Shown here: positions 136 through 9,135 of the stretch, piece after piece | How the letters are laid out: the number at the start of each line of letters is the position of its first letter | How positions within the stretch are numbered: the first letter of the stretch is position 1 | Assembly (NCBI GenBank): GCA_011192125.1 | Contig: DUEL01000012.1 | Location: forward strand, 23,622-75,803 | Length of the DNA stretch: 52,182 nt | Direction: 5' to 3' | DNA from: Thermoflexia bacterium | GTDB lineage: Bacteria > Chloroflexota > Anaerolineae > B4-G1 > DUEL01 | The notes under the pieces: model-generated | Told to the model about the DNA's origin: nothing | Database searches by the model: none | The model's input: the letters and a program-made list of their open reading frames with translations, nothing else | Made by a program: the position numbers and the translations under genes

Positions 136-834
136 ATGAGGGACTTCGCTGCGTTGATCTGTGGCCTCCTGGCCGATGAGGAGGCTCTTCATAACCTCCC
201 GTTCGATCGGCAGGAGTTCGAGGACGGCGAGACGATCTTCGAGCGAGGTGACCCCGGGGAGGATCTCTACGTCGTCGAGTCGGGCCAGGTACGTATCTTC
301 ACCGTCGACGAGGGGGGGCGTGAACTGACGTTGAACACGCTGGGCCCGGGGGAGGTGTTCGGCGAATTGGCTCTGCTGGACAGTCGTCCCCGCTCGGCCA
401 GCGCTGCCGCCGTCGGCCCCACCGTTCTCCGCCGTATCGACAGAAGCCACCTGCTCTCCCTGATCCAGTCCTCGCCGGAACTGGCTGCGAGCCTCTACGA
501 CCTCCTGGCTCAGCGCACGCGTCATATGACCGACTACATCGAGCGGTTGGGGCATTGGGCGCGGCTGGTCGCCGAAGGACGGTACGACGAGGCGATGAGG
601 AGCCTTCAGGCCGAGGGCCAGGTCTCCGACCGGGCCCTCGCGGCCGTGGCCGACGCGGTGCGGACGATGGTGCAAGCCGTGCGAGAGCGAGAGGAGCGAC
701 TGAGGCGAGAGGTCGCCCAACTGCGCATCGAGATCGACGAGGTAAAACGAAGGAAGAGCGTGGCGGAGATCACCGATACGGAGTACTTCCGCGACCTGGC
801 CCGTCGGGCACGTGAGTTGCGGAAGCGGATGTAG
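136..834 (+). CDS. cyclic-nucleotide-binding domain protein with HAMP-like segment and C-terminal coiled coil (no HTH)
   Basis: cNMP motifs IFERGDPGEDLYVVESGQV and FGELALLDSRPRSASA; HAMP-like IERLGHWARLVAEGRY...LAAVADAVRTM; tail LRIEIDEVKRRKSVAEITDTEYFRDL. Start placed at ATG 136. Confidence 0.85.
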   Translation: MRDFAALICGLLADEEALHNLPFDRQEFEDGETIFERGDPGEDLYVVESGQVRIFTVDEGGRELTLNTLGPGEVFGELALLDSRPRSASAAAVGPTVLRRIDRSHLLSLIQSSPELAASLYDLLAQRTRHMTDYIERLGHWARLVAEGRYDEAMRSLQAEGQVSDRALAAVADAVRTMVQAVREREERLRREVAQLRIEIDEVKRRKSVAEITDTEYFRDLARRARELRKRM

Positions 835-837
835 CAT

Positions 838-871
838 CCTGCGCTTGCTCCCTTGCGACCTGCTCCCCTGC
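838..871 (+). repeat. degenerate ~8-bp tandem repeat (CYTGCTCC)
   Basis: cctgcg cttgctcc cttgcga cctgctcc cctgc immediately after the stop codon. Confidence 0.5.
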
Positions 872-953
872 GGATGGCCTCTTCCACCAACGACAGCAGG
901 CGGTCGCTCCGCCCAAGTCCTGCAGGTTGTCCACTTGAGATAAGGAGGTGCAA

Positions 954-1727
954 ATGGCTCGGGTCGTCTCCATCCATTCCTTCCGCGGCGGGACCGGCAA
1001 GTCGAACATCACGGCCAACCTGGCTGCCCTTCTCGCGCTCAGAGGAGAACGGGTCGGTGTCATCGACACCGACATCCAGTCCCCCGGCATCCACATCCTC
1101 TTCGGGATGGAGGAGGAGCACATCAGCAAGACGCTCAACGATTACCTCTGGGGGCAGTGCTCCATTGAGGACACCGCCTACGACGTCGGGGAGAGGCTGG
1201 GGCACAGCGCGCTGGAGGCAGCCGGGGGAGCGATCTACCTCATCCCTTCCAGCCTTCGCGCCGGAGAGATCACCCGGATCCTGCGCGAGGGGTACGATGT
1301 GGGCACGCTGAACGAAGGGTTCCGTGACCTCATCCGCGAGTTGAACCTCGACTACCTTCTGATCGATACCCATCCCGGCCTGAACGAGGAGACGCTCCTT
1401 TCCATCGCCATCTCCGACTGCCTGGTGATCGTCCTCCGGCCCGACCAGCAGGACTTTCAGGGCACGGCTGTGACGGTGGATGTGGCCCGGCGGCTGGACG
1501 TCCCGCAGATCATTCTCGTGGTGAACAAGGCTCTCTCTTCCTACGATCTGGATGCCCTCCGCGACCAGGTGGAGTCGACCTACGAATGTCCGGTCGCGGC
1601 GGTGCTCCCCCTCTCCGAGGAGGTAGCCGCGCTCCAGTCGGCCGACCTGGCTGTCATCCGGTTGCCGGACCACTCCTTCTCCAAAGGGATGGAGGCCGTC
1701 GTCCAGGCGATCGAGGCTGGAAAGTAG
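954..1727 (+). CDS. MinD/ParA family ATPase
   Basis: Deviant Walker A SFRGGTGKS, VIDTDIQSPG and LLIDTHPG motifs; SD TAAGGAGG at 941-948. Confidence 0.9.
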   Translation: MARVVSIHSFRGGTGKSNITANLAALLALRGERVGVIDTDIQSPGIHILFGMEEEHISKTLNDYLWGQCSIEDTAYDVGERLGHSALEAAGGAIYLIPSSLRAGEITRILREGYDVGTLNEGFRDLIRELNLDYLLIDTHPGLNEETLLSIAISDCLVIVLRPDQQDFQGTAVTVDVARRLDVPQIILVVNKALSSYDLDALRDQVESTYECPVAAVLPLSEEVAALQSADLAVIRLPDHSFSKGMEAVVQAIEAGK

Positions 1728-1737
1728 GAGCGGAGCG

Positions 1738-1953
1738 ATGGTCTGCCACAAGTGCGGGGAGCCAGCGATCGGCATCTGTCGGTTCTGTGGGCGGGCCGTC
1801 TGCAAGGAGCACCACGTCACCACCTTGCCGACGATCCTGGCGATGTACCTGGGAGACCAGCAGACGCCGAAGGCGATCGTGGTCTCCAACGTTCTCTGGT
1901 GCGGGGAGTGCCAGCCGCAGCCGGAGCCCGTTGAGGTGCCGGAGTTCTACTAG
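1738..1953 (+). CDS. small zinc-finger protein
   Basis: CHKC..CRFC..CKEH..CGEC in 71 aa; SD AGGAG; tight operon spacing. Confidence 0.75.
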   Translation: MVCHKCGEPAIGICRFCGRAVCKEHHVTTLPTILAMYLGDQQTPKAIVVSNVLWCGECQPQPEPVEVPEFY

Positions 1954-1964
1954 GAGGTGGCACG

Positions 1965-2309
1965 ATGGGCATTTTCGACCGCATTCAGGCGGAGGTCGAA
2001 GAACGGGAGCGGAGGGAAGGGATCACACCGTCCGCACTGCTCGACCTCCCGCCGGAGCAGCGCCGCCTGATCAACCACATCACCCGTAGCGGTGAACAGA
2101 CGGCGGCTCAGGCGGCCAGCGCCCTGGACGTGCCGCTGGAAGAGGTGCAGGAGACGCTGGACCTGCTGGCCGAGAAGGGATACCTGGAGCGGGAGAAGCG
2201 GCCGGAGGGTTGGGTGTACCGGACCCGCTTCGGGCGCAAGCGGGCGCGCCAGATCCCCGTCGGCATCTGGTCCGCCCTCGGGGGTGAGAAGGGGGAGCAG
2301 GAGGAATAG
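1965..2309 (+). CDS. winged helix-turn-helix (MarR/TrmB-like) protein
   Basis: TAAQAASALDVPLEEVQETLDLLAEKGYL wHTH pattern; SD AGGAGG. Confidence 0.8.
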   Translation: MGIFDRIQAEVEERERREGITPSALLDLPPEQRRLINHITRSGEQTAAQAASALDVPLEEVQETLDLLAEKGYLEREKRPEGWVYRTRFGRKRARQIPVGIWSALGGEKGEQEE

Positions 2310-2314
2310 GACCG

Positions 2315-3511
2315 GTGGTTCTGGCGGCACCCATCGCCATCGGGATTCCGGCGGCGTTTCTGTTCCTGATCTACACGCTCGACCTGTACGCCTCTCGGAC
2401 CTTCCGCCTGGTCGCGCTCTGCTTCGGCTGGGGGGCGGTCGGCGCGTTCGGCCTGGCGTATGTGATCAACAGTTACGTAGGCTCCCCCCTGCTGGCGCGG
2501 TGGTTCGCCGATCCCTACCTGGGGCTCACGGTCGGCTTCGCGCCGGTGGTGGAGGAGATCACCAAAGCGCTCATCCTCATCTATATCGCGCGCCAGCCGG
2601 AGTTCACCTATTTCGTCGACGGAGCGATCTACGGCTTCGCGTCCGGCATCGGCTTCTCGATCGCGGAGAACTTTCTTTACCTCTCCGCCAACCCCGGTGG
2701 GGGGATCGCGCTGGCGTTGGCGCGGGCCTTTTCGACCTGCCTGATGCACGGCGCGGCCGCTGGGACGGTGGGGGCGGCGGTGGGCCGCTTCCGGTTCCAC
2801 CGGGGGTCCGGCCGGGTGGTAGCTCAGGTGGGCGGTTGGGGAGCCGCCGTCCTCCTCCATGCCCTCTTCAACGGCACGGTCTACACGGGCTCGCTGGGCG
2901 GCGCGGGCGCTCTTCTGATCCCCGTCGCCATCGGGGTGGCGGGGGTCGGCATACTAGTCGTGTTTGTCTTCCTCGGCCTGCAGGAGGAGCGACGCTGGCT
3001 GGCGGAGACCCTCGACCGGAAGGTGGGGGTGACGGCGGCGGAGGTGCGGGCCGCCCAGGCCCTGGGCGACCTGGAGGAGCTCCTCCAGCCCATCGCTGCC
3101 CAGTTCCCGCGGAAGGCGCGGGAGGTCGAACAACTGGTGCTGCTCCAGGCCCAGATCGGCATCAAGCGGAAGGTCCTGCAGCGGACGGAGGATCCGAGGC
3201 TGCGGGAACGACTGGAGCGGAGCATCGATGAGATGCGCGAGGAGATGGAGCGGCTGCGGAAGGGGGTCGGCCTCTACGTGATGAGTTACCTCCGCGCTGT
3301 CTTCCCGGAGGGGGCGATGGACATCTGGAGCCGGATGGAGCAGTTGATCCCGGCGGCCGTCTCTGCGGATGCGGGGGGGTGGGTGAGGACCTTCGCCTCT
3401 CCCGTGGGCGGCACCCCCAGCGGGAGGGACATCTTCGCCAGCATTCAGAAACAGGAGCGTGCAGAAAACCATAGAGACACAGAGAGCACAGAGGAATCTC
3501 CAAGAAGATGA
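2315..3511 (+). CDS. PrsW family intramembrane metalloprotease with cytoplasmic C-terminal helical domain
   Basis: Multiple TM segments with PrsW motifs APVVEEITK, GFSIAENFLY, CLMHG and LLHALFN. Confidence 0.9.
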   Translation: MVLAAPIAIGIPAAFLFLIYTLDLYASRTFRLVALCFGWGAVGAFGLAYVINSYVGSPLLARWFADPYLGLTVGFAPVVEEITKALILIYIARQPEFTYFVDGAIYGFASGIGFSIAENFLYLSANPGGGIALALARAFSTCLMHGAAAGTVGAAVGRFRFHRGSGRVVAQVGGWGAAVLLHALFNGTVYTGSLGGAGALLIPVAIGVAGVGILVVFVFLGLQEERRWLAETLDRKVGVTAAEVRAAQALGDLEELLQPIAAQFPRKAREVEQLVLLQAQIGIKRKVLQRTEDPRLRERLERSIDEMREEMERLRKGVGLYVMSYLRAVFPEGAMDIWSRMEQLIPAAVSADAGGWVRTFASPVGGTPSGRDIFASIQKQERAENHRDTESTEESPRR

Positions 3512-3562: not shown

Positions 3563-5626
3563 GTGATGAGATCGCGGGGTGTTGGTCTGGCATTGGCTTT
3601 GGCGTTGGGTGTGGCACTGGCCCTCCTGTGGGCGATCGGGATCCAGCAGGAGGTCGCCACCGCCGCCCCCGCTCCCGCCGTCGAGGGGGCGGGAGCATCA
3701 TCGGTGGCCCCTGCTGCCACCACTTACTACGTTGCCCCTGGGGGGGACTGCGGGGTGATGACGCCATGCTTCGCCACCGTCCAGGGGGCCGTGGACGCCG
3801 CGGCTCCTGGCGACATCATCCTGGTTGCCTCGGGGTTCTACACCGGCGTCCAGCAGCGAAACGGCATCACCCAGGTGGTCTACATCTCCAAAGACATCAC
3901 CATCCGCGGCGGGTACACCGTCACCAACTGGAGCACTTCCGATCCCCTGCTCAATGTGACATCGCTAGATAGCGTCGGGTTCGGACGGGTGATGGTGATC
4001 AGTGGCCCCATCACCGTCCACGTCGAAGGTCTTTACATCGCCAACGGCAATGCCTCCGGTCTGGGCGGTGGCCCCGGCGGTCTCGACGGCGCCGGCGGGG
4101 GGGTCTATGTGGTGGGTGCGAACGTCACCATCAGCAACTGCACCTTCAGCGGCAACGTGGCCAGCAGCAACGGGATCGGCAGCGGCGGTGGGATCTATCT
4201 GTGGAACGCGAACGCGAGTCTCGTCAACAACGAGTTTCTGTCCAACATTGCCAGCGGGAACATTCTCTACGCTGGCTATGGTGGGGGGATCGCTATATCG
4301 GGCGGGAGCGTGACCCTGGAGAGGAACTATATCCACTCCAACAGTGCCAACCTGTACAACAGTTCAGGCAGTGGTGGTGGAATCTACATCGATAGCGGGA
4401 GTCCCATCCTGATCAACAATGTCCTCATCGATAACTCCGCCCCTTCCCAGGGGTCCGCCATCTACATCGGCAGCGCCTCCCCTCACTTGCTCCACACCAC
4501 CATCGTCAGCAACACCGGCGGCGACGGGAGTGGCATTTACGCTGCTGGAAGCACGGTGGTTCTCACCAACTCCATCATCGTCAGCCAGATGGTGGGCGTC
4601 ACCACCGAGATCAACACGAACGTCACCCTCAACGGCGTTCTCTGGTACGGCAACGAGCGGAACACAGGGGGGGGAGGGATAGTCACCGTTCAGAACGAGG
4701 TCACTGGCACCCCCGACTTCGACATCGATGGCTACCATATCCTATCCTCCTCGGCTGCGTTGAACGCAGGGGTGAACGCGGGGGTGAGCGGCGACATCGA
4801 CGGTCAGGACCGGCCCTACGGCGCTGCCCCCGATCTGGGGGCGGACGAGTGGTGGCCAACGCCGATCACCGGCGTGCTGATTCTAGGATCGGACATCGGC
4901 TTCGTCGACTTCCCGAACTTCTTTAACGCCCTGGCCCTGCCGTGGGACGCCGCCCTGCCCATCACCTACACCTGGTCGCCAGTGCCGGACGGCGGGCAGG
5001 GAACGGCCTGGGTCACCTACACCTGGTCGACCACCGGCACCTACGTGATCACCCTCACCGCCCAGAACGTCAGCGGCAGCGCGATTACCACGACGACCAT
5101 CACCATCCGCACCGACCTCACAACGACCCTCTACCCCACGGCGGACATCACCCTGATCTATACTGACCCCTGGGGGTTGACGACCACCGTCTACGCCCCG
5201 GCTGGTGCGGTGACCCAGTCGCTGGTCCTGCGATATGTGCCGCAACCCACGTACACCTACAACCTTTCTCCCGACTGGGGTTTCGCCGACCACGCCTTCG
5301 ACCTGGAGGTCCTTTCGAACGAACTTCCCCTCCAGGGCTTTGTGTTCAGCCAGCCGCTGACCATCACGGTCAACTACACCGATAGCGACGTCGCGGGGCT
5401 GGACGAGAACACCCTCCGGCTCTATTTCTGGGACGGCAGCCAGTGGGTGGACGGAGCGACCACCTGTGTTCCCACTTCCACCTACCACCTTTACACGCAG
5501 GAGAACCGGCTTGAACTCGCCATCTGCCACCTGAGCCGGTGGGGGATGATGGGGTTCCGCGCCGGAGATGCGGGGGAGAAGAAGGTGTATCTCTATCTCC
5601 CCATCGTTCTGCGGAACTATCCGTAG
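3563..5626 (+). CDS. secreted right-handed parallel beta-helix protein with PKD-like domain and C-terminal YLPIVLR tail
   Basis: N-terminal signal peptide; TVQGAVDAA, repeated GGG(I/V)Y and N-A motifs, DIDGQDRP..APDLGADE, WSTTGTYVITLTAQN, terminal YLYLPIVLRNYP. Confidence 0.85.
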   Translation: MMRSRGVGLALALALGVALALLWAIGIQQEVATAAPAPAVEGAGASSVAPAATTYYVAPGGDCGVMTPCFATVQGAVDAAAPGDIILVASGFYTGVQQRNGITQVVYISKDITIRGGYTVTNWSTSDPLLNVTSLDSVGFGRVMVISGPITVHVEGLYIANGNASGLGGGPGGLDGAGGGVYVVGANVTISNCTFSGNVASSNGIGSGGGIYLWNANASLVNNEFLSNIASGNILYAGYGGGIAISGGSVTLERNYIHSNSANLYNSSGSGGGIYIDSGSPILINNVLIDNSAPSQGSAIYIGSASPHLLHTTIVSNTGGDGSGIYAAGSTVVLTNSIIVSQMVGVTTEINTNVTLNGVLWYGNERNTGGGGIVTVQNEVTGTPDFDIDGYHILSSSAALNAGVNAGVSGDIDGQDRPYGAAPDLGADEWWPTPITGVLILGSDIGFVDFPNFFNALALPWDAALPITYTWSPVPDGGQGTAWVTYTWSTTGTYVITLTAQNVSGSAITTTTITIRTDLTTTLYPTADITLIYTDPWGLTTTVYAPAGAVTQSLVLRYVPQPTYTYNLSPDWGFADHAFDLEVLSNELPLQGFVFSQPLTITVNYTDSDVAGLDENTLRLYFWDGSQWVDGATTCVPTSTYHLYTQENRLELAICHLSRWGMMGFRAGDAGEKKVYLYLPIVLRNYP

Positions 5627-5667
5627 GGGCAGGCAACCATCCGCCCTACGGCCGTCCGCCCCTACGG
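5621..5667. repeat. GTAG-type REP-like inverted repeat between convergent genes
   Basis: ccgtaggggc (5621-5630) and gcccctacgg (5658-5667) form a perfect 10-bp IR, with an extra gccctacgg at 5643-5651. Confidence 0.7.
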
Positions 5668-8600
5668 GCGGGCTGCCCATTCGCGGATCGCCCGGTGCAC
5701 CGGCACGTCCTCCAGGAAGGTGCGCCGGGCGTCCTCGTCGCTGATGCGGCCTGCCTGCTCCATCAGCAGGGCGTGGGCGGCGGAGACGACCTCCCGGGCC
5801 TTCCCCTGCCGGCCGGCAGCGGTGAAGATCTCCGCGGCGGAGAGATAGACGTGGAGGGGATACTCGATGGAGGCTGGGCCGTGCTCCTCCATCCAGGCCA
5901 GGGCCTCTTCGGCGAGGGACACGGCCTCCTCGATCCGTCCTTGCTTCGCCTCCACCCGGGCCAGCCCGACCCGGTTGTACATCGCGGGTCCTTCCTGGCC
6001 GATCTCAGCGCGGATGCGCGCGGCCTCTCTGTGGGCCTCGGCGGCACCCCCCCATTCCTCTAGGCCCTCCAGCGCCAACCCCAGGTAGGTCAGCGCGTAG
6101 GCTTCCCCCTGCCGGTCGCCGATCTCCCGCTCGAGGGCGAGGGCCTGTTCACAGTAGCGGCGGGCCGCGGCGTCGTCGCCCAGGTCGTGCAGCACCAGGC
6201 CGAGGTTCTCCGCCGTCAGCGCGATCCCTCGCCGGTCGTCGATCTCCCGGAACAGGTCCATCGCCTGCTGGTAGAGGTCGCGGGCCGTCTCGAGGTGGCC
6301 CAGGGAGTGGTGGACGCTGCCCAGGTTACTCAGCGCCTGGACCTCGTTCCGCCGATCGCCGAGGGTCCGATAGACGGAGAGCACCTGCTCACCCAGAGCT
6401 TTGCAGCGGGAGAAGTCCCCTAGGGCGTGATAGACGCCCGCGAGATTCCCAAGGGTGATCGCCTCCCCGCGCCGGTCGCCCAACTCCCGGCGGATCGTCA
6501 GCGCCGCCTCCAACTGCTCGCGGGCCCCGTCGAAATCGCTCAAGAAGTAGAGGATGGTCCCGATGTTGTGGAGACAGGTCGCCTCGCCCGCCCGGTCCCC
6601 GTGCTCCCGGGCCAGCGCCAGCGCTGCCTCCAGTCGCTCGCGCGCCTCTTCGAAGGCCCCCTGCCGCCAGAGCGCCCGGCCCCACGCGATCAGCCCCTCG
6701 GTCTTGCGGCGAACGTCCCCCGCCTGCTCCGCCAGACCGACCGTTTCCTGAGCCGCGGAGACGGCGGCGGGGAACTCGCTGATCGCCTCGTAGTAGGCTG
6801 CCCAGCGCAGCGCGACCTCTGCCTGTCGATCCAGATCGCCCATCTCTCGGGCCAGCGAGGTCAGCGCCTCCAGGTCGGCGGCCTGGGCTTCGCGCTGTCC
6901 GGTCAGCCGGTACACCCCCTCCCGGCCCAGCAGGAGGTGATACCGCTGCTCCTGTAGCCACGTCGGGTCCGCCTCCACCCGGGGCAGCAGGTCCAGCGCG
7001 TGGCTGAAGTAGGCGATGGCGTCGGCGTTGGCGAACTGGCCTGCAGCCTGCTCTCCCGCTTTTCGAAGGTAGATGACGGCCTTCTTCAGGACGTTCCCCT
7101 GCTCGTAGTGGTGGGCGATGAGGGAGAAGAAGGAAGGGATGCTGCCCGCACGCTGTTCCAGCCACTCGGCCACCCGGGCGTGGACGGGCCGACGGACCCG
7201 TCTGGGCAGGCTTTCGTAGGCCACGTCCCGGGCCAGGCTGTGGTGGAAGTGCCACTCCTCCTCATCGGCGATGGTGGATTCTCCCGGCCGGTATACCCAT
7301 CCGCCGCTTTCAAGCCGGCCGAGAGCCTCCACGACCGCTGACGTTTCTGTGCCCTCTTCGATCTTGCTCAGGACGCCGCGCCAGAAGGTCCGGCCGACGA
7401 TGGCCGCCCGTTGCAGGACGTACTTGTCGAGGGAGGGCAGCCGGTCGAGGCGGGCGGCGATGACGCCCTGGACCGTGCCCGGCACCTGGATCTGGGTCAC
7501 GGCGCGGGTGACCTGCCACCGGCCGGTCGCCGGATCGCGGTTCAGTACCCCCTCCTCGATCAGCGAACGGAGGATCTCTTCCAGAAAGAATGGGTTACCC
7601 TGAGCGCGGTCCAGCAGCAGGTCCAGCAGGTCCTCGGGGAGGTCGGATTCGTCGAGCAGCCGGGCGACCAGGGTGCCCGAGGCCTCAGCGTCGAGGGGAC
7701 GGAGTAGGAGCCGTTGGCCCGGAGGTTGGGACAGGCAGGTAAGGAGCCTCCCGTAGGCCGAATCCTCTTCCTCCGGTCGGCTGAGGGCGAGCAGGAAGCA
7801 GCCGCCACCGGTGGGCCAGATTCGCCCCGCCCGGTTGACCAGCCACTCTAGGAAGGAGAGGGAAAGGGCATCGGCCCAGTGGAGGTCCTCCACCACCAGC
7901 AGCAGAGGGTTCTCCCTCGCCGCGGCGTGAAGGATCCGCTCGAGCGAGAGGAACGTCCGATCGCGTCGCTGTTCGGGGTCGAGGCCGGCCATCGGGTCCG
8001 GGTCCAACGGGATCCCCAGCACGCCGGAGACCGAGCCGAGCCAGTAGCGGAGTTCCTCCCCCTCGACGTCCGGTGCCAGCCTCTGCAGTTCCGCCGCCAG
8101 CCGCTCCGTCTGCCCCTCCCGGTCGGCCCCCAGGTCGAAGAGGCCGCCGAGGAGGTCGGCAAGGAGCGCGTAGGGGGTGTTCTGGGTGTGGGCGAAGCAG
8201 CGACCGAGGAGCGTCCTCGCCATCGGATAGGTCCGCGCCACCCAGGCGATGAACTCCCGCCGCAGCCGCGTCTTGCCAACCCCCGCCTCGCCCACCACCG
8301 TCACCGTCTGCCAGCGCTCTCCGGTGAGCAGTTGATGGAAAGCCGTCTGGAGGGTCCTCAGTTCCTCCTCCCGGCCCACCATCGGTGCCTGGAGGCCGGG
8401 AACCCCGCGGGTGGGGCCGCGCCGCGCCTTCTCACCGACGACCACGTAGACGGTGATCGGTTCCGCCTTGCCCTTCACGCGGATCTGTCGGGGCGGCTCA
8501 AAGTCGAACAGGGCGTGGAGGGGGCGGGCCGTCTCCGCGCTGATCATCACGCGGCCCGGCGGGCATGCCGACTCCAGCCGTGAGGCCAGGTTGACCGTGT

Positions 8601-9135
8601 CGCCCACGATAGCGAAGTCCCGATCAGCCCGGCCCTCCAGGGCCCCGTACATCACCAACCCCGTGTTGACCCCGATGCGCATCGTCAGGCGGAAGCCCCG
8701 CTCCCGCTCCAACTCCTCGTTGAACGATTCGAGGGCCTCCTGCATCGCCAGCGCGGCCCGCACGGCCATCTCCTCGTGGTTCTCCAGCGCTTTGGGCGCG
8801 CCGAAGATGGCGAGGATAGCGTCGCCGATGTACTTCTCAATGGTCCCGCCGTACCGGAGGATGGCCGGGTTCATCCGCTGGAAGTAGGCGTCCATCACGG
8901 CGGTGACGTCCTCGGGGTCCATCTTCTCCGACATCGCGGTGAAGCCAGCGAGGTCGGAGAAGAGGACGGTGACGCGTTTCCGTTCCTCGGAGGGAGGGGC
9001 GGCGCGGGTCAGGGCGAGGAGCCGTTCGCGCAGCGGGGCGAGGGCCGCCTCGACGACGGCGTCCCCCAGGGTGGCCCGTTGGGCCTCCAGGGCAGCGATC
9101 GCGGTGCGAAGTTGTTCGATCTCCTCGGCAGACAT
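5662..9135 (-). CDS. class III adenylate/guanylate cyclase - STAND/AAA ATPase - TPR multidomain protein
   Basis: VLFSDLAGFT, KYIGDA and DFAIVGDTVNLASRLE cyclase motifs; Walker A GEAGVGKT; Walker B LLVVEDLHWAD; GNPFFLEE; many C-terminal TPR-like repeats. Confidence 0.92.
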   Translation of the reverse strand: MSAEEIEQLRTAIAALEAQRATLGDAVVEAALAPLRERLLALTRAAPPSEERKRVTVLFSDLAGFTAMSEKMDPEDVTAVMDAYFQRMNPAILRYGGTIEKYIGDAILAIFGAPKALENHEEMAVRAALAMQEALESFNEELERERGFRLTMRIGVNTGLVMYGALEGRADRDFAIVGDTVNLASRLESACPPGRVMISAETARPLHALFDFEPPRQIRVKGKAEPITVYVVVGEKARRGPTRGVPGLQAPMVGREEELRTLQTAFHQLLTGERWQTVTVVGEAGVGKTRLRREFIAWVARTYPMARTLLGRCFAHTQNTPYALLADLLGGLFDLGADREGQTERLAAELQRLAPDVEGEELRYWLGSVSGVLGIPLDPDPMAGLDPEQRRDRTFLSLERILHAAARENPLLLVVEDLHWADALSLSFLEWLVNRAGRIWPTGGGCFLLALSRPEEEDSAYGRLLTCLSQPPGQRLLLRPLDAEASGTLVARLLDESDLPEDLLDLLLDRAQGNPFFLEEILRSLIEEGVLNRDPATGRWQVTRAVTQIQVPGTVQGVIAARLDRLPSLDKYVLQRAAIVGRTFWRGVLSKIEEGTETSAVVEALGRLESGGWVYRPGESTIADEEEWHFHHSLARDVAYESLPRRVRRPVHARVAEWLEQRAGSIPSFFSLIAHHYEQGNVLKKAVIYLRKAGEQAAGQFANADAIAYFSHALDLLPRVEADPTWLQEQRYHLLLGREGVYRLTGQREAQAADLEALTSLAREMGDLDRQAEVALRWAAYYEAISEFPAAVSAAQETVGLAEQAGDVRRKTEGLIAWGRALWRQGAFEEARERLEAALALAREHGDRAGEATCLHNIGTILYFLSDFDGAREQLEAALTIRRELGDRRGEAITLGNLAGVYHALGDFSRCKALGEQVLSVYRTLGDRRNEVQALSNLGSVHHSLGHLETARDLYQQAMDLFREIDDRRGIALTAENLGLVLHDLGDDAAARRYCEQALALEREIGDRQGEAYALTYLGLALEGLEEWGGAAEAHREAARIRAEIGQEGPAMYNRVGLARVEAKQGRIEEAVSLAEEALAWMEEHGPASIEYPLHVYLSAAEIFTAAGRQGKAREVVSAAHALLMEQAGRISDEDARRTFLEDVPVHRAIREWAARP

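Follow-up and report, generated by a model that had tools for sequence, protein, structure and literature searches.

The five adjacent genes at positions 136-3511 of a 52,182-nt stretch of DNA from a Thermoflexia bacterium (GenBank assembly GCA_011192125.1, contig DUEL01000012.1, positions 23,622 to 75,803; hereafter, the window) encode, in this order and all on the forward strand, a cyclic-nucleotide-binding (CNB) domain protein, a MinD-like ATPase with an arginine in its Walker A loop, a Cys-rich protein, a winged helix-turn-helix (wHTH) protein, and a PrsW-type protease. Comparison of related genomes supports the five genes as a conserved, co-inherited unit. Judged from the gene neighbourhoods, what is conserved across phyla consists of the C-terminal tail of the CNB protein, the ATPase, and the wHTH protein, and not of the whole five-gene set. 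We propose, at a little under an even chance, that the five genes make up the cytoplasmic part that controls a switch based on regulated proteolysis, in which a signal would run from a cyclic nucleoside monophosphate (cNMP) through the sensor, the ATPase, and PrsW to an extracytoplasmic function (ECF) sigma factor; of this scheme, we infer all physical contacts, which way the signal flows, and what PrsW cuts. We also put forward, with the balance tilted somewhat against it, the broader possibility that the tail is an unnamed output of HAMP-type receptors, the ATPase its transducer, and the wHTH domain the docking part of the effectors. These would together form a general relay of Chloroflexota and Cyanobacteria, distinct from the two-component, chemotaxis, ECF, and second-messenger pathways, and the PrsW/ECF branch would be one output of it.

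Conservation and co-inheritance of the gene set

The window is part of contig C24 of its own genome (G000). For relatives of the ATPase, contigs of one genome per species were scanned; at least 563 of 569 candidate stretches were confirmed, and the best 80 loci (59-70% identity) were kept. By labels assigned by hand, these loci belong to Chloroflexota (39), Cyanobacteriota (36), Actinomycetota (1), and Sericytochromatia (1), and three were unlabelled. All open reading frames (ORFs) in the 80 loci were mapped with hidden Markov model (HMM) and phmmer searches; because contig ends cut many loci, the neighbourhood counts are lower bounds. Single-linkage clustering of the neighbour ORFs merged the ATPase, the sensors, and the cyclases, and served only to spot sigma, anti-sigma, DUF7005, and tandem-cNMP neighbours. 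For the phyletic profile, 121 genomes of the class were evenly drawn, G000 included.

An ORF with the tail was found in 53 of the 80 loci, next to and co-oriented with the ATPase in 33 of them, and the wHTH domain was found in 31, in 30 of which it was adjacent or fused to the ATPase. Cyclase domains occurred in 24 loci, the Cys-rich protein in 16, PrsW in 15, and all four partners in 11. The loci with the Cys-rich protein or PrsW all lie within the 39 labelled Chloroflexota; on this distribution, only the Chloroflexota loci have added the Cys-rich protein and the long-tailed PrsW. A preliminary description of the window had called for a neighbourhood comparison across phyla, and by this comparison the tail-ATPase-wHTH combination is shared by Chloroflexota and cyanobacteria, but the Cys-rich protein and PrsW are not.

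In the 121 genomes, the ATPase was found in 26, the tail in 25, the Cys-rich protein in 23, the wHTH protein in 22, and the C-terminal domain of PrsW (C-domain) in 11. The tail and the ATPase occurred together in 25 genomes, the tail alone in none, the ATPase alone in one (a 650-contig genome), and neither in 95. For the wHTH protein and the ATPase, the corresponding numbers were 22 with both, none with the wHTH only, 4 with the ATPase only, and 95 with neither; for the Cys-rich protein and the ATPase, they were 19, 4 (Cys only), 7 (ATPase only), and 91; and for the PrsW C-domain and the ATPase, 10, 1 (C-domain only), 16 (ATPase only), and 94. The Cys-rich protein was present in 10 of the 11 genomes with the PrsW C-domain. 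As had been supposed in the preliminary description, the five genes behave as a unit: all five families were found together in 10 of the 121 genomes and in four gene orders, and the contrary outcome, a failure to co-occur in other genomes, was not seen. In G000, the single tail gene adjoins the single Arg-Walker ATPase, and in five other whole genomes, with 14 tail and 10 ATPase matches, 8 of the tail matches were located no more than 10 kb from an ATPase match.

The four gene orders are as follows: type A, the order of the window, sensor-ATPase-Cys-wHTH-PrsW(-cyclase), in L010, L011, L014, L016, L017, and L018; type B, sigma-antisigma-PrsW-cNMPtail-ATPase-Cys-wHTH, in L040, L065, L084, and the genome G128, and partly in L060, L067, L085, and L088; type C, PrsW-ATPase-Cys-wHTH-cNMPtail, in L093, L094, L097, and L098; and type D, ATPase-Cys-wHTH-cyclase-sigma-antisigma-PrsW::cNMP-cNMP, in L096. 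The L096 gene is a natural fusion of PrsW and cNMP_binding (608 amino acids (aa); PrsW at 34-212, cNMP at 414-499) and backs, in one genome, the link between cNMP sensing and PrsW that had been drawn for the window. Apparent PrsW-ATPase and ATPase-Cys fusions (G079, G120, G033) were rejected as out-of-frame open frames in GC-rich DNA. As a separate observation on type C, a sigma-70-family gene of a different, longer kind (242 aa, with regions 2 and 4) adjoins the cNMP-tail gene (L093:3932-4660, L097:3126-3857, L098:7601-8737); the two genes run in the same direction in L097 and converge in L093.

Proteins of the module

The five ORFs were confirmed as co-oriented genes: the CNB protein (gene 1) at 136-834 (232 aa), the ATPase (gene 2) at 948/954-1727, the Cys-rich protein (gene 3) at 1738-1953 (71 aa), the wHTH protein (gene 4) at 1965-2309 (114 aa), and PrsW (gene 5) at 2315-3511 (398 aa). 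The last four are separated by only 5-11 bp (gaps of 10, 11, and 5 bp), and the gap between genes 1 and 2 is 113 bp, or 119 bp when the ATPase starts at ATG 954. The ORF of the ATPase opens at GTG 948; ATG 954, which gives 257 aa, is preferred as the start because AAGGAGG lies 6 nt upstream of it and the homologues begin with MAKIVS. Among the five proteins, hydrophobic segments were found in PrsW only.

Residues 26-112 of the gene 1 protein (positions 211-471, forward strand) match Pfam cNMP_binding (PF00027) with 96 bits (cut-off, 27.5). The phosphate-binding cassette of CNB domains has the motif GE…R[ST]A; it is intact in the window protein (GELALLDSRPRSA), and the motif is kept in 16 of the 19 relatives checked. 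By these matches, gene 1 is a CNB domain protein with a predicted ligand. It appears soluble (no hydrophobic segment). Only the CNB part aligns to CRP models (53 bits vs. a cut-off of 266), and the C-terminal helix-turn-helix of the CRP/FNR type was not found; the C-terminal half consists instead of a HAMP-like segment and the tail, which agrees with the earlier view of a cyclic-nucleotide sensor without a DNA-binding domain. The label "cNMP-HAMP sensor", under which the protein had been described, was upheld for its cNMP part and divided the methods for its HAMP part: Pfam HAMP (PF00672) gave no match on residues 101-232 even at E ≤ 1, but with hhalign, residues 129-232 were aligned to residues 229-336 of the protein at L016, whose Pfam HAMP lies at 226-281 (probability 99.7%, E = 2.7e-25). 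On the strength of this profile-profile alignment to the HAMP and tail of transmembrane relatives, gene 1 is read as a cNMP domain, then a HAMP-like segment (aa ~129-181; positions 520-678, forward strand), then the tail.

The conserved tail (aa ~176-232; positions 661-834, forward strand) comprises about 55 residues with the consensus L+IEIDExK+x+QVAEITETDYFxxLxxKAxxLRxR, and in most loci the ORF beside the ATPase matches the gene 1 protein over its final ~50 residues only. For the tail alignment, 48 of the 58 tail-match ORFs from the loci were used with the window protein (49 in total), the remaining 10 being near-duplicates. When the tail profile was compared with 1.84 billion representatives, 2527 clusters were found at E ≤ 0.001 and 1622 at E ≤ 1e-10, and the match was nearly always C-terminal. 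The 49 locus proteins carry HAMP (27), cNMP_binding (12), dCache_1 (10), GAF (7), CHASE2 (6), sCache (6), receiver (1), and protein kinase (1) domains. Among the database proteins, the domains were counted in those of at least 241 residues (86 of the 150 listed representatives), and were HAMP (68), dCache_1 (25), receiver (9), and HisKA (6). In both sets, the HAMP domain lies ahead of the tail. No Pfam family covers the tail in the window and locus proteins, and against PDB sequences its profile retrieved only the GCN4 and myosin coiled coils (E ~ 0.2). We propose that the tail is a contact site for the ATPase.

A structure prediction of the MinD-like ATPase with the tail had been suggested as a check in the preliminary description. 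The ATPase dimer with ATP was folded with residues 176-232 and with three controls. The score was 0.59 (0.00 for the best of the three controls), which gives weak support; the runs agreed in at least 83% of contacts, with a partner pLDDT of at least 69. When this test was calibrated, 58 of 80 solved complexes passed the mark, as did 2 of 110 mismatched pairs, and among these passes, scores of 0.60 or lower were obtained for 7 of the 80 solved complexes and for both passing mismatches. Taken together with a strong genomic prior, the prediction is read as modest support for a direct tail-ATPase contact.

The ATPase matches the Pfam families ParA, CbiA, and AAA_31, all over their cut-offs (about 64 bits). 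Its Walker A loop is SFRGGTGKS, and the arginine that replaces the signature lysine is invariant in 20 of 20 aligned homologues, as are G17-K18-S19, D40/D42 (DTD), and D140 (IDTHPG), by which the protein qualifies as a P-loop ATPase of the ParA/MinD superfamily. Across the best 80 loci, 88 of the 98 ATPase matches have [FY]RGGTGKSN; the other 10 have more degenerate loops, several without the catalytic lysine. The signature lysine of the deviant MinD Walker A motif (xKGGxGK[ST]) is absent from the window ATPase, and the MinD models were not reached (TIGR01968, bacterial, 51.4 vs. a cut-off of 212.9; TIGR01969, archaeal, 95.9 vs. 201.75), nor was NCBIfam NF047398, the second-best NCBIfam match (79.3 bits vs. 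90). The closest solved structure is archaeal MinD (1HYQ, E = 1.7e-19). The C-terminus (…VVQAIEAGK) has no hydrophobic segment. On these comparisons, the protein is a distinct subfamily of the ParA/MinD superfamily, and its description as an Arg-Walker MinD ATPase stands, with the subfamily set apart from canonical MinD. It had also been remarked that no minC, minE, or parB partner accompanies it. This is correct near the window gene but not genome-wide: in G000, minC and minE lie beside a canonical KGGVGKT MinD on contig C35, and ParB is on C133. Since the canonical minC-minD-minE set is on C35, the window ATPase is regarded as an additional paralogue and not as a MinD with lost partners.

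Further ATPases of the subfamily were noted. The wHTH domain is located at the C-terminus of ATPase paralogues in 5 of 5 long forms (L025:631-1728, L083:1090-2196, L044:4787-5851, L022:1841-3058, L029:4067-5212); their Walker A loops are degenerate (e.g., CRAGTGQS, CRHGLGCS), several lack the catalytic lysine, and they are probably pseudo-ATPases. In the type-B loci L040, L060, L065, L067, L084, L085, and L088, and in L095, which was likewise classed as type B for this purpose, a second Arg-Walker ATPase is encoded divergently to the ECF sigma operon (in G128, this ATPase has a separate wHTH), and conserved TATAAT-like boxes in the intergenic region face both directions. Behind the ATPase of Nostocales-type loci come a DUF7005 protein (11 loci, e.g., L019:6807-8045) and a protein of 360 aa that contains two cNMP-binding domains (8 loci, e.g., L026:8145-9224).

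The three remaining proteins conformed to the preliminary description of a 71-aa Cys-rich protein, a wHTH protein, and a PrsW with a long C-terminal region. In the alignment of the Cys-rich protein, C3, C6, C14, C17, C22, H25, C55, and C58 are invariant and are followed by a PQPEP tail, and it is probably a double zinc site. Pfam gave a borderline C5HCH match only; the AF2 model is of moderate confidence (pLDDT, 74.6), and a Foldseek comparison of the protein with the PDB gave no match at E ≤ 0.001, only loose zinc-finger look-alikes. Longer fused forms were not found, and in the related loci the gene always adjoins the ATPase gene. The wHTH protein matches Pfam MarR_2 (33.4 bits vs. a cut-off of 27), a MarR-type winged helix, and its alignment ends with a conserved basic "IWxxL" motif; we propose that it may serve as an adaptor or effector of the ATPase. 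The same domain was also observed at about residue 600 of membrane proteins of ~965-990 aa (L099:5667-8561, forward strand; L100:2396-5299, reverse strand), the N-terminal half of which is amino-acid-permease-like; long frames of this kind were seen in 5 of the sampled genomes of the class. These proteins may be a further class of ATPase effectors.

PrsW matches Pfam PF13367 with 102.2 bits (cut-off, 23.5) and contains the motifs EExxK, FxxxE, H, and HxxxD/N; E80, E81, K84, F114/E118, H145, and H182/N186 are the same in all 16 sequences compared. The four catalytic motifs (as in YpdC of B. subtilis) were defined according to the part of PMC12943098 that was consulted. The equivalog model NCBIfam NF033739 was not reached (47.3 bits vs. 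225), and the NCBIfam label for PrsW is glutamic-type protease. The last hydrophobic segment lies at aa 200-218, and therefore about 180 non-membrane residues are left at the C-terminus. These include the all-helical C-domain (aa 222-341; positions 2978-3337, forward strand; AF2 pLDDT, 72.2; pTM, 0.61), to which no Pfam family corresponds and for which Foldseek gave no match in the PDB at E ≤ 0.001. We propose the C-domain as the receiver of a cytoplasmic signal.

The upstream sigma factor and competing explanations

The earlier statement that no ECF sigma or anti-sigma gene is present is valid inside the window, but a sigma and anti-sigma-like pair lies 2.3-3.3 kb upstream of it on the same contig. 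The best homologue of the type-B operon sigma in the window's own genome is G000:C24:20307-20864 (E = 1.5e-41; 2.8-3.3 kb before the window), with Sigma70_r2, r4_2, and ECF matches (regions 2 and 4). The ORF that follows it with an ATGA overlap encodes 148 aa with two hydrophobic segments and a short loop, and aligns with the family that follows the type-B sigma in 11 loci. Upstream of gene 1, the order is sigma, anti-sigma-like protein, PD40 beta-propeller protein, and a dispersed repeat. PrsW has the sigma/anti-sigma pair directly before it in 7 related loci; G128, G088, and G038 show this arrangement too, and G128 has the same eight-gene synteny, including the PD40 gene (38% identity). With the ECF sigma, anti-sigma-like, and PD40 genes directly upstream, the pair preceding PrsW elsewhere, and cyclases in 24 of the 80 loci, the idea of a self-contained circuit had to be abandoned. 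The PD40 protein itself (G000:C24:21482-23800; L009:7861-10179) includes a linker rich in Pro/Thr and, probably, a C-terminal anchor, and its homologue is in the same place in G128; the true stop of the gene is uncertain because the fragmented assembly contains many ambiguous bases (N) upstream of the window.

On the other side of the module, a 1157-aa cyclase protein is encoded convergently (5662-9135, reverse strand; Pfam Guanylate_cyc (class III), 111 bits; AAA_16, 87 bits; TPR) and is the probable source of the cyclic nucleotide. In the proposed mechanism, this cyclase would make a cyclic nucleotide, which would be bound by the CNB domain of gene 1, and the resulting change would pass via the HAMP-like segment to the 55-residue C-terminal tail. 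The tail would contact the dimeric Arg-Walker ATPase and shift its cycle between the ATP-bound dimer and hydrolysis; the ATPase, with the zinc-finger protein and the wHTH adaptor, would then act on the helical cytoplasmic domain of PrsW, and PrsW would cut the upstream anti-sigma-like protein, with its two transmembrane segments, and free the ECF sigma.

Several points weigh against this mechanism. The predicted tail-ATPase contact is a weak pass only, and the Fisher values on co-inheritance overstate significance and are indicative only, because the sampled genomes are related and not independent. Most ATPase-tail pairs, in cyanobacteria and in many Chloroflexota, are without a PrsW or Cys gene, and for this reason proteolysis cannot be the general output of such pairs. 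Pfam found no anti-sigma domain in the anti-sigma-like protein. In four of the five type-A genomes, the orthologous sigma/anti-sigma pair is on a contig other than that of the module, and in the fifth no orthologue of the pair was detected at E ≤ 1e-25. The anti-sigma family was found in 4 of the 121 genomes, that is, in at least 4 of the 11 with the PrsW C-domain, in a profile survey in which at most 30 candidates were scored per genome and G038 was missed (both families, at least 4; anti-sigma only, 0; C-domain only, 7; neither, 110). The wHTH protein could also be a plain DNA-binding regulator.

The last-named doubt leads to an explanation in terms of transcription control, in which the ATPase dimer would hold or free a DNA-binding wHTH protein under the sensor tail, with PrsW, the Cys-rich protein, and the sigma pair as neighbours or targets. 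The wHTH protein matches MarR_2, TrmB, and HTH_20, it is the tightest partner of the ATPase across phyla (30 of 31 adjacent or fused; ATPase present in 22 of 22 wHTH genomes), it is fused to ATPase paralogues, and the ATPase-wHTH pair occurs without PrsW in cyanobacteria. However, its presence inside permease-like membrane proteins of ~965-990 aa would be odd for a DNA-binding regulator, its basic/hydrophobic C-terminal motif is unlike the dimerisation helices of MarR, and PrsW, the Cys-rich protein, and the ATPase stay together through four rearrangements; we consider this explanation unlikely. We find it similarly hard to favour an ATPase that spaces the tail receptors (and PrsW) on the membrane or the nucleoid, with the tail as an activating adaptor and the wHTH protein as a DNA tether. 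Membership of the ParA/MinD superfamily, with its precedents PpfA/TlpT and ParC/ParP, would suit such positioning, most tail proteins are membrane receptors, genomes contain several receptors per ATPase, and the weak predicted contact fits equally well; against it, the partner in the window is a small soluble cNMP sensor with no hydrophobic segment, the tail takes the exact place of the output domain of HAMP receptors, the loss of the Walker lysine in some paralogues is easier to reconcile with a switch or scaffold than with a patterning motor, and the protease, cyclase, and sigma context points to signal flow.

The probable zinc site raises the question of metal delivery, that is, of an ATPase and a zinc-finger partner that load or remove metal on PrsW or another client while the sensor only gates. 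Seven invariant Cys and one invariant His, the constant adjacency of the Cys-rich protein to the ATPase, and Mrp/HypB-type ATPases (3vx3) among the distant PDB matches would be in keeping with it, but the tail-ATPase-wHTH trio is widespread without the Cys-rich protein, which is missing in 7 of the 26 class-sample genomes that have the ATPase and in all 36 cyanobacterial loci; the Cys-rich protein has no fold match to HypA, and PrsW is named a glutamic-type protease by NCBIfam. We regard metal delivery as very improbable. That the genes are chance neighbours sharing an operon is scarcely credible, given the set kept in four gene orders, the families co-inherited across the 121 genomes, and the fusions between members of the set.

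Known systems and immediate surroundings

The ATPases of the ParA/MinD superfamily are known spatial organisers, and several act with short activating partner peptides (MinE, the ParB N-terminus, PomX, McdB; for FlhG, the N-termini of FliM/FliY with an EIDAL contact). ParA-like ATPases also position chemoreceptor arrays via a receptor terminus (PpfA-TlpT in Rhodobacter, ParC-ParP in Vibrio), and in archaeal HypB-HypA, a MinD/Mrp-type ATPase has a zinc-finger partner. The window ATPase resembles the MinD-MinE type in its size (~257 aa), in its deviant Walker A loop, in the expected ATP dimer, in having archaeal MinD 1HYQ as its nearest structure, and in having a neighbour-encoded partner that bears a short helical peptide, conserved and partly basic. 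It differs in that this peptide is the C-terminal output of HAMP-type sensors instead of a dedicated small protein, in its arginine for the signature lysine, in scoring below the MinD models, and in having minC and minE elsewhere (C35). As in the chemoreceptor arrays, the ATPase is encoded with receptors and would recognise a receptor terminus; unlike those arrays of methyl-accepting chemotaxis proteins (MCPs), which signal via CheA/CheW, the receptors here have the tail in place of an MCP signalling domain. The ATPase of NF047398, a KGGVGR variant, shares the superfamily and a variant Walker A loop, whereas in the window protein the first lysine is changed to arginine, the catalytic GK[ST] is kept, and the score is under the cut-off.

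The sigmaW-RsiW-PrsW pathway of B. subtilis has in common with the window the PrsW motifs and an ECF sigma with a membrane anti-sigma-like protein, which are encoded beside PrsW in several genomes and a short way upstream in G000. In contrast, the window PrsW is not the equivalog (47.3 vs. 225) and has an extra ~120-aa helical cytoplasmic domain, the anti-sigma-like protein differs from RsiW in its two hydrophobic segments, short loop, and lack of a Pfam anti-sigma domain, and the B. subtilis pathway has no counterpart to the cytoplasmic cNMP/ATPase layer. Within the part of the source consulted, the nearest precedent for a messenger-coupled PrsW is LIC_20173 of Leptospira interrogans, a PrsW::PilZ fusion predicted by computation only (PMC12943098). 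Like the PrsW::cNMP_binding protein of L096, it joins PrsW to a cytoplasmic second-messenger-binding domain; as far as that part of the source describes it, it differs in its messenger (c-di-GMP instead of cNMP) and in being a direct fusion without ATPase, wHTH, or zinc-finger partners.

Each component family is already known. The motif strings, the ATPase subfamily, and the gene set were not found described in the literature, of which supplementary gene-context tables (e.g., those of the ECF classification) were not covered, and Pfam, NCBIfam, and the PDB gave no match to the tail-ATPase-wHTH assembly or to the PrsW/ECF-grafted assembly; the module keeps its designation as uncharacterised. 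From what was searched, two things appear to be new: an output tail of HAMP-type receptors that is co-inherited with a dedicated MinD-like ATPase and a wHTH protein, and the joining of this assembly to a PrsW/ECF pathway that a cyclic nucleotide would control. In cyanobacteria and Chloroflexota, many receptors of the HAMP, Cache, GAF, and CHASE2 types have no recognised output domain at their end; for these, the tail is a candidate output and the Arg-Walker ATPase a candidate partner, which makes their signalling directly testable. The tail and the PrsW C-domain, both missing from Pfam, can be defined as families. If the proposed switch is correct, MinD/ParA ATPases would gain a role in signal transduction, and a cyclic nucleotide would control an ECF sigma from the cytoplasmic side, by a new route via the cytoplasmic domain of PrsW; if the broader relay exists, it would be a general route from receptor to effector, with tail receptors in more than 1600 clusters.

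The five genes had been placed behind one promoter, which was not substantiated: the scan for consensus promoters and terminators gave nothing relevant before gene 1 or after PrsW. A sigmaW-like promoter pattern ([TG]GAA[AC][CT]-N14-18-CGT[ACT]) was found in none of the 15 regions upstream of the sigma genes and the cNMP gene. By eye, a weak candidate of the sigma-70 type can be seen at 99-126 on the forward strand (TTGCGT at 99-104, a 16-nt spacer, and TATACT at 121-126); it ends 9 nt before ATG 136, and therefore its transcript would be nearly leaderless. Downstream of the module, positions 3563-5626 encode a secreted protein of 687 aa that contains a PKD domain and beta-helix-like repeats rich in Gly/Asn. 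Its gene starts 51 nt past PrsW and is not kept next to the module in the related loci, in which one weak match was found (L068). The dispersed repeat of ~75 nt between the upstream PD40 gene and gene 1 occupies positions 7-84 of the window and has 40 further matches in the genome at E ≤ 0.001, 72-96% identical and on both strands.

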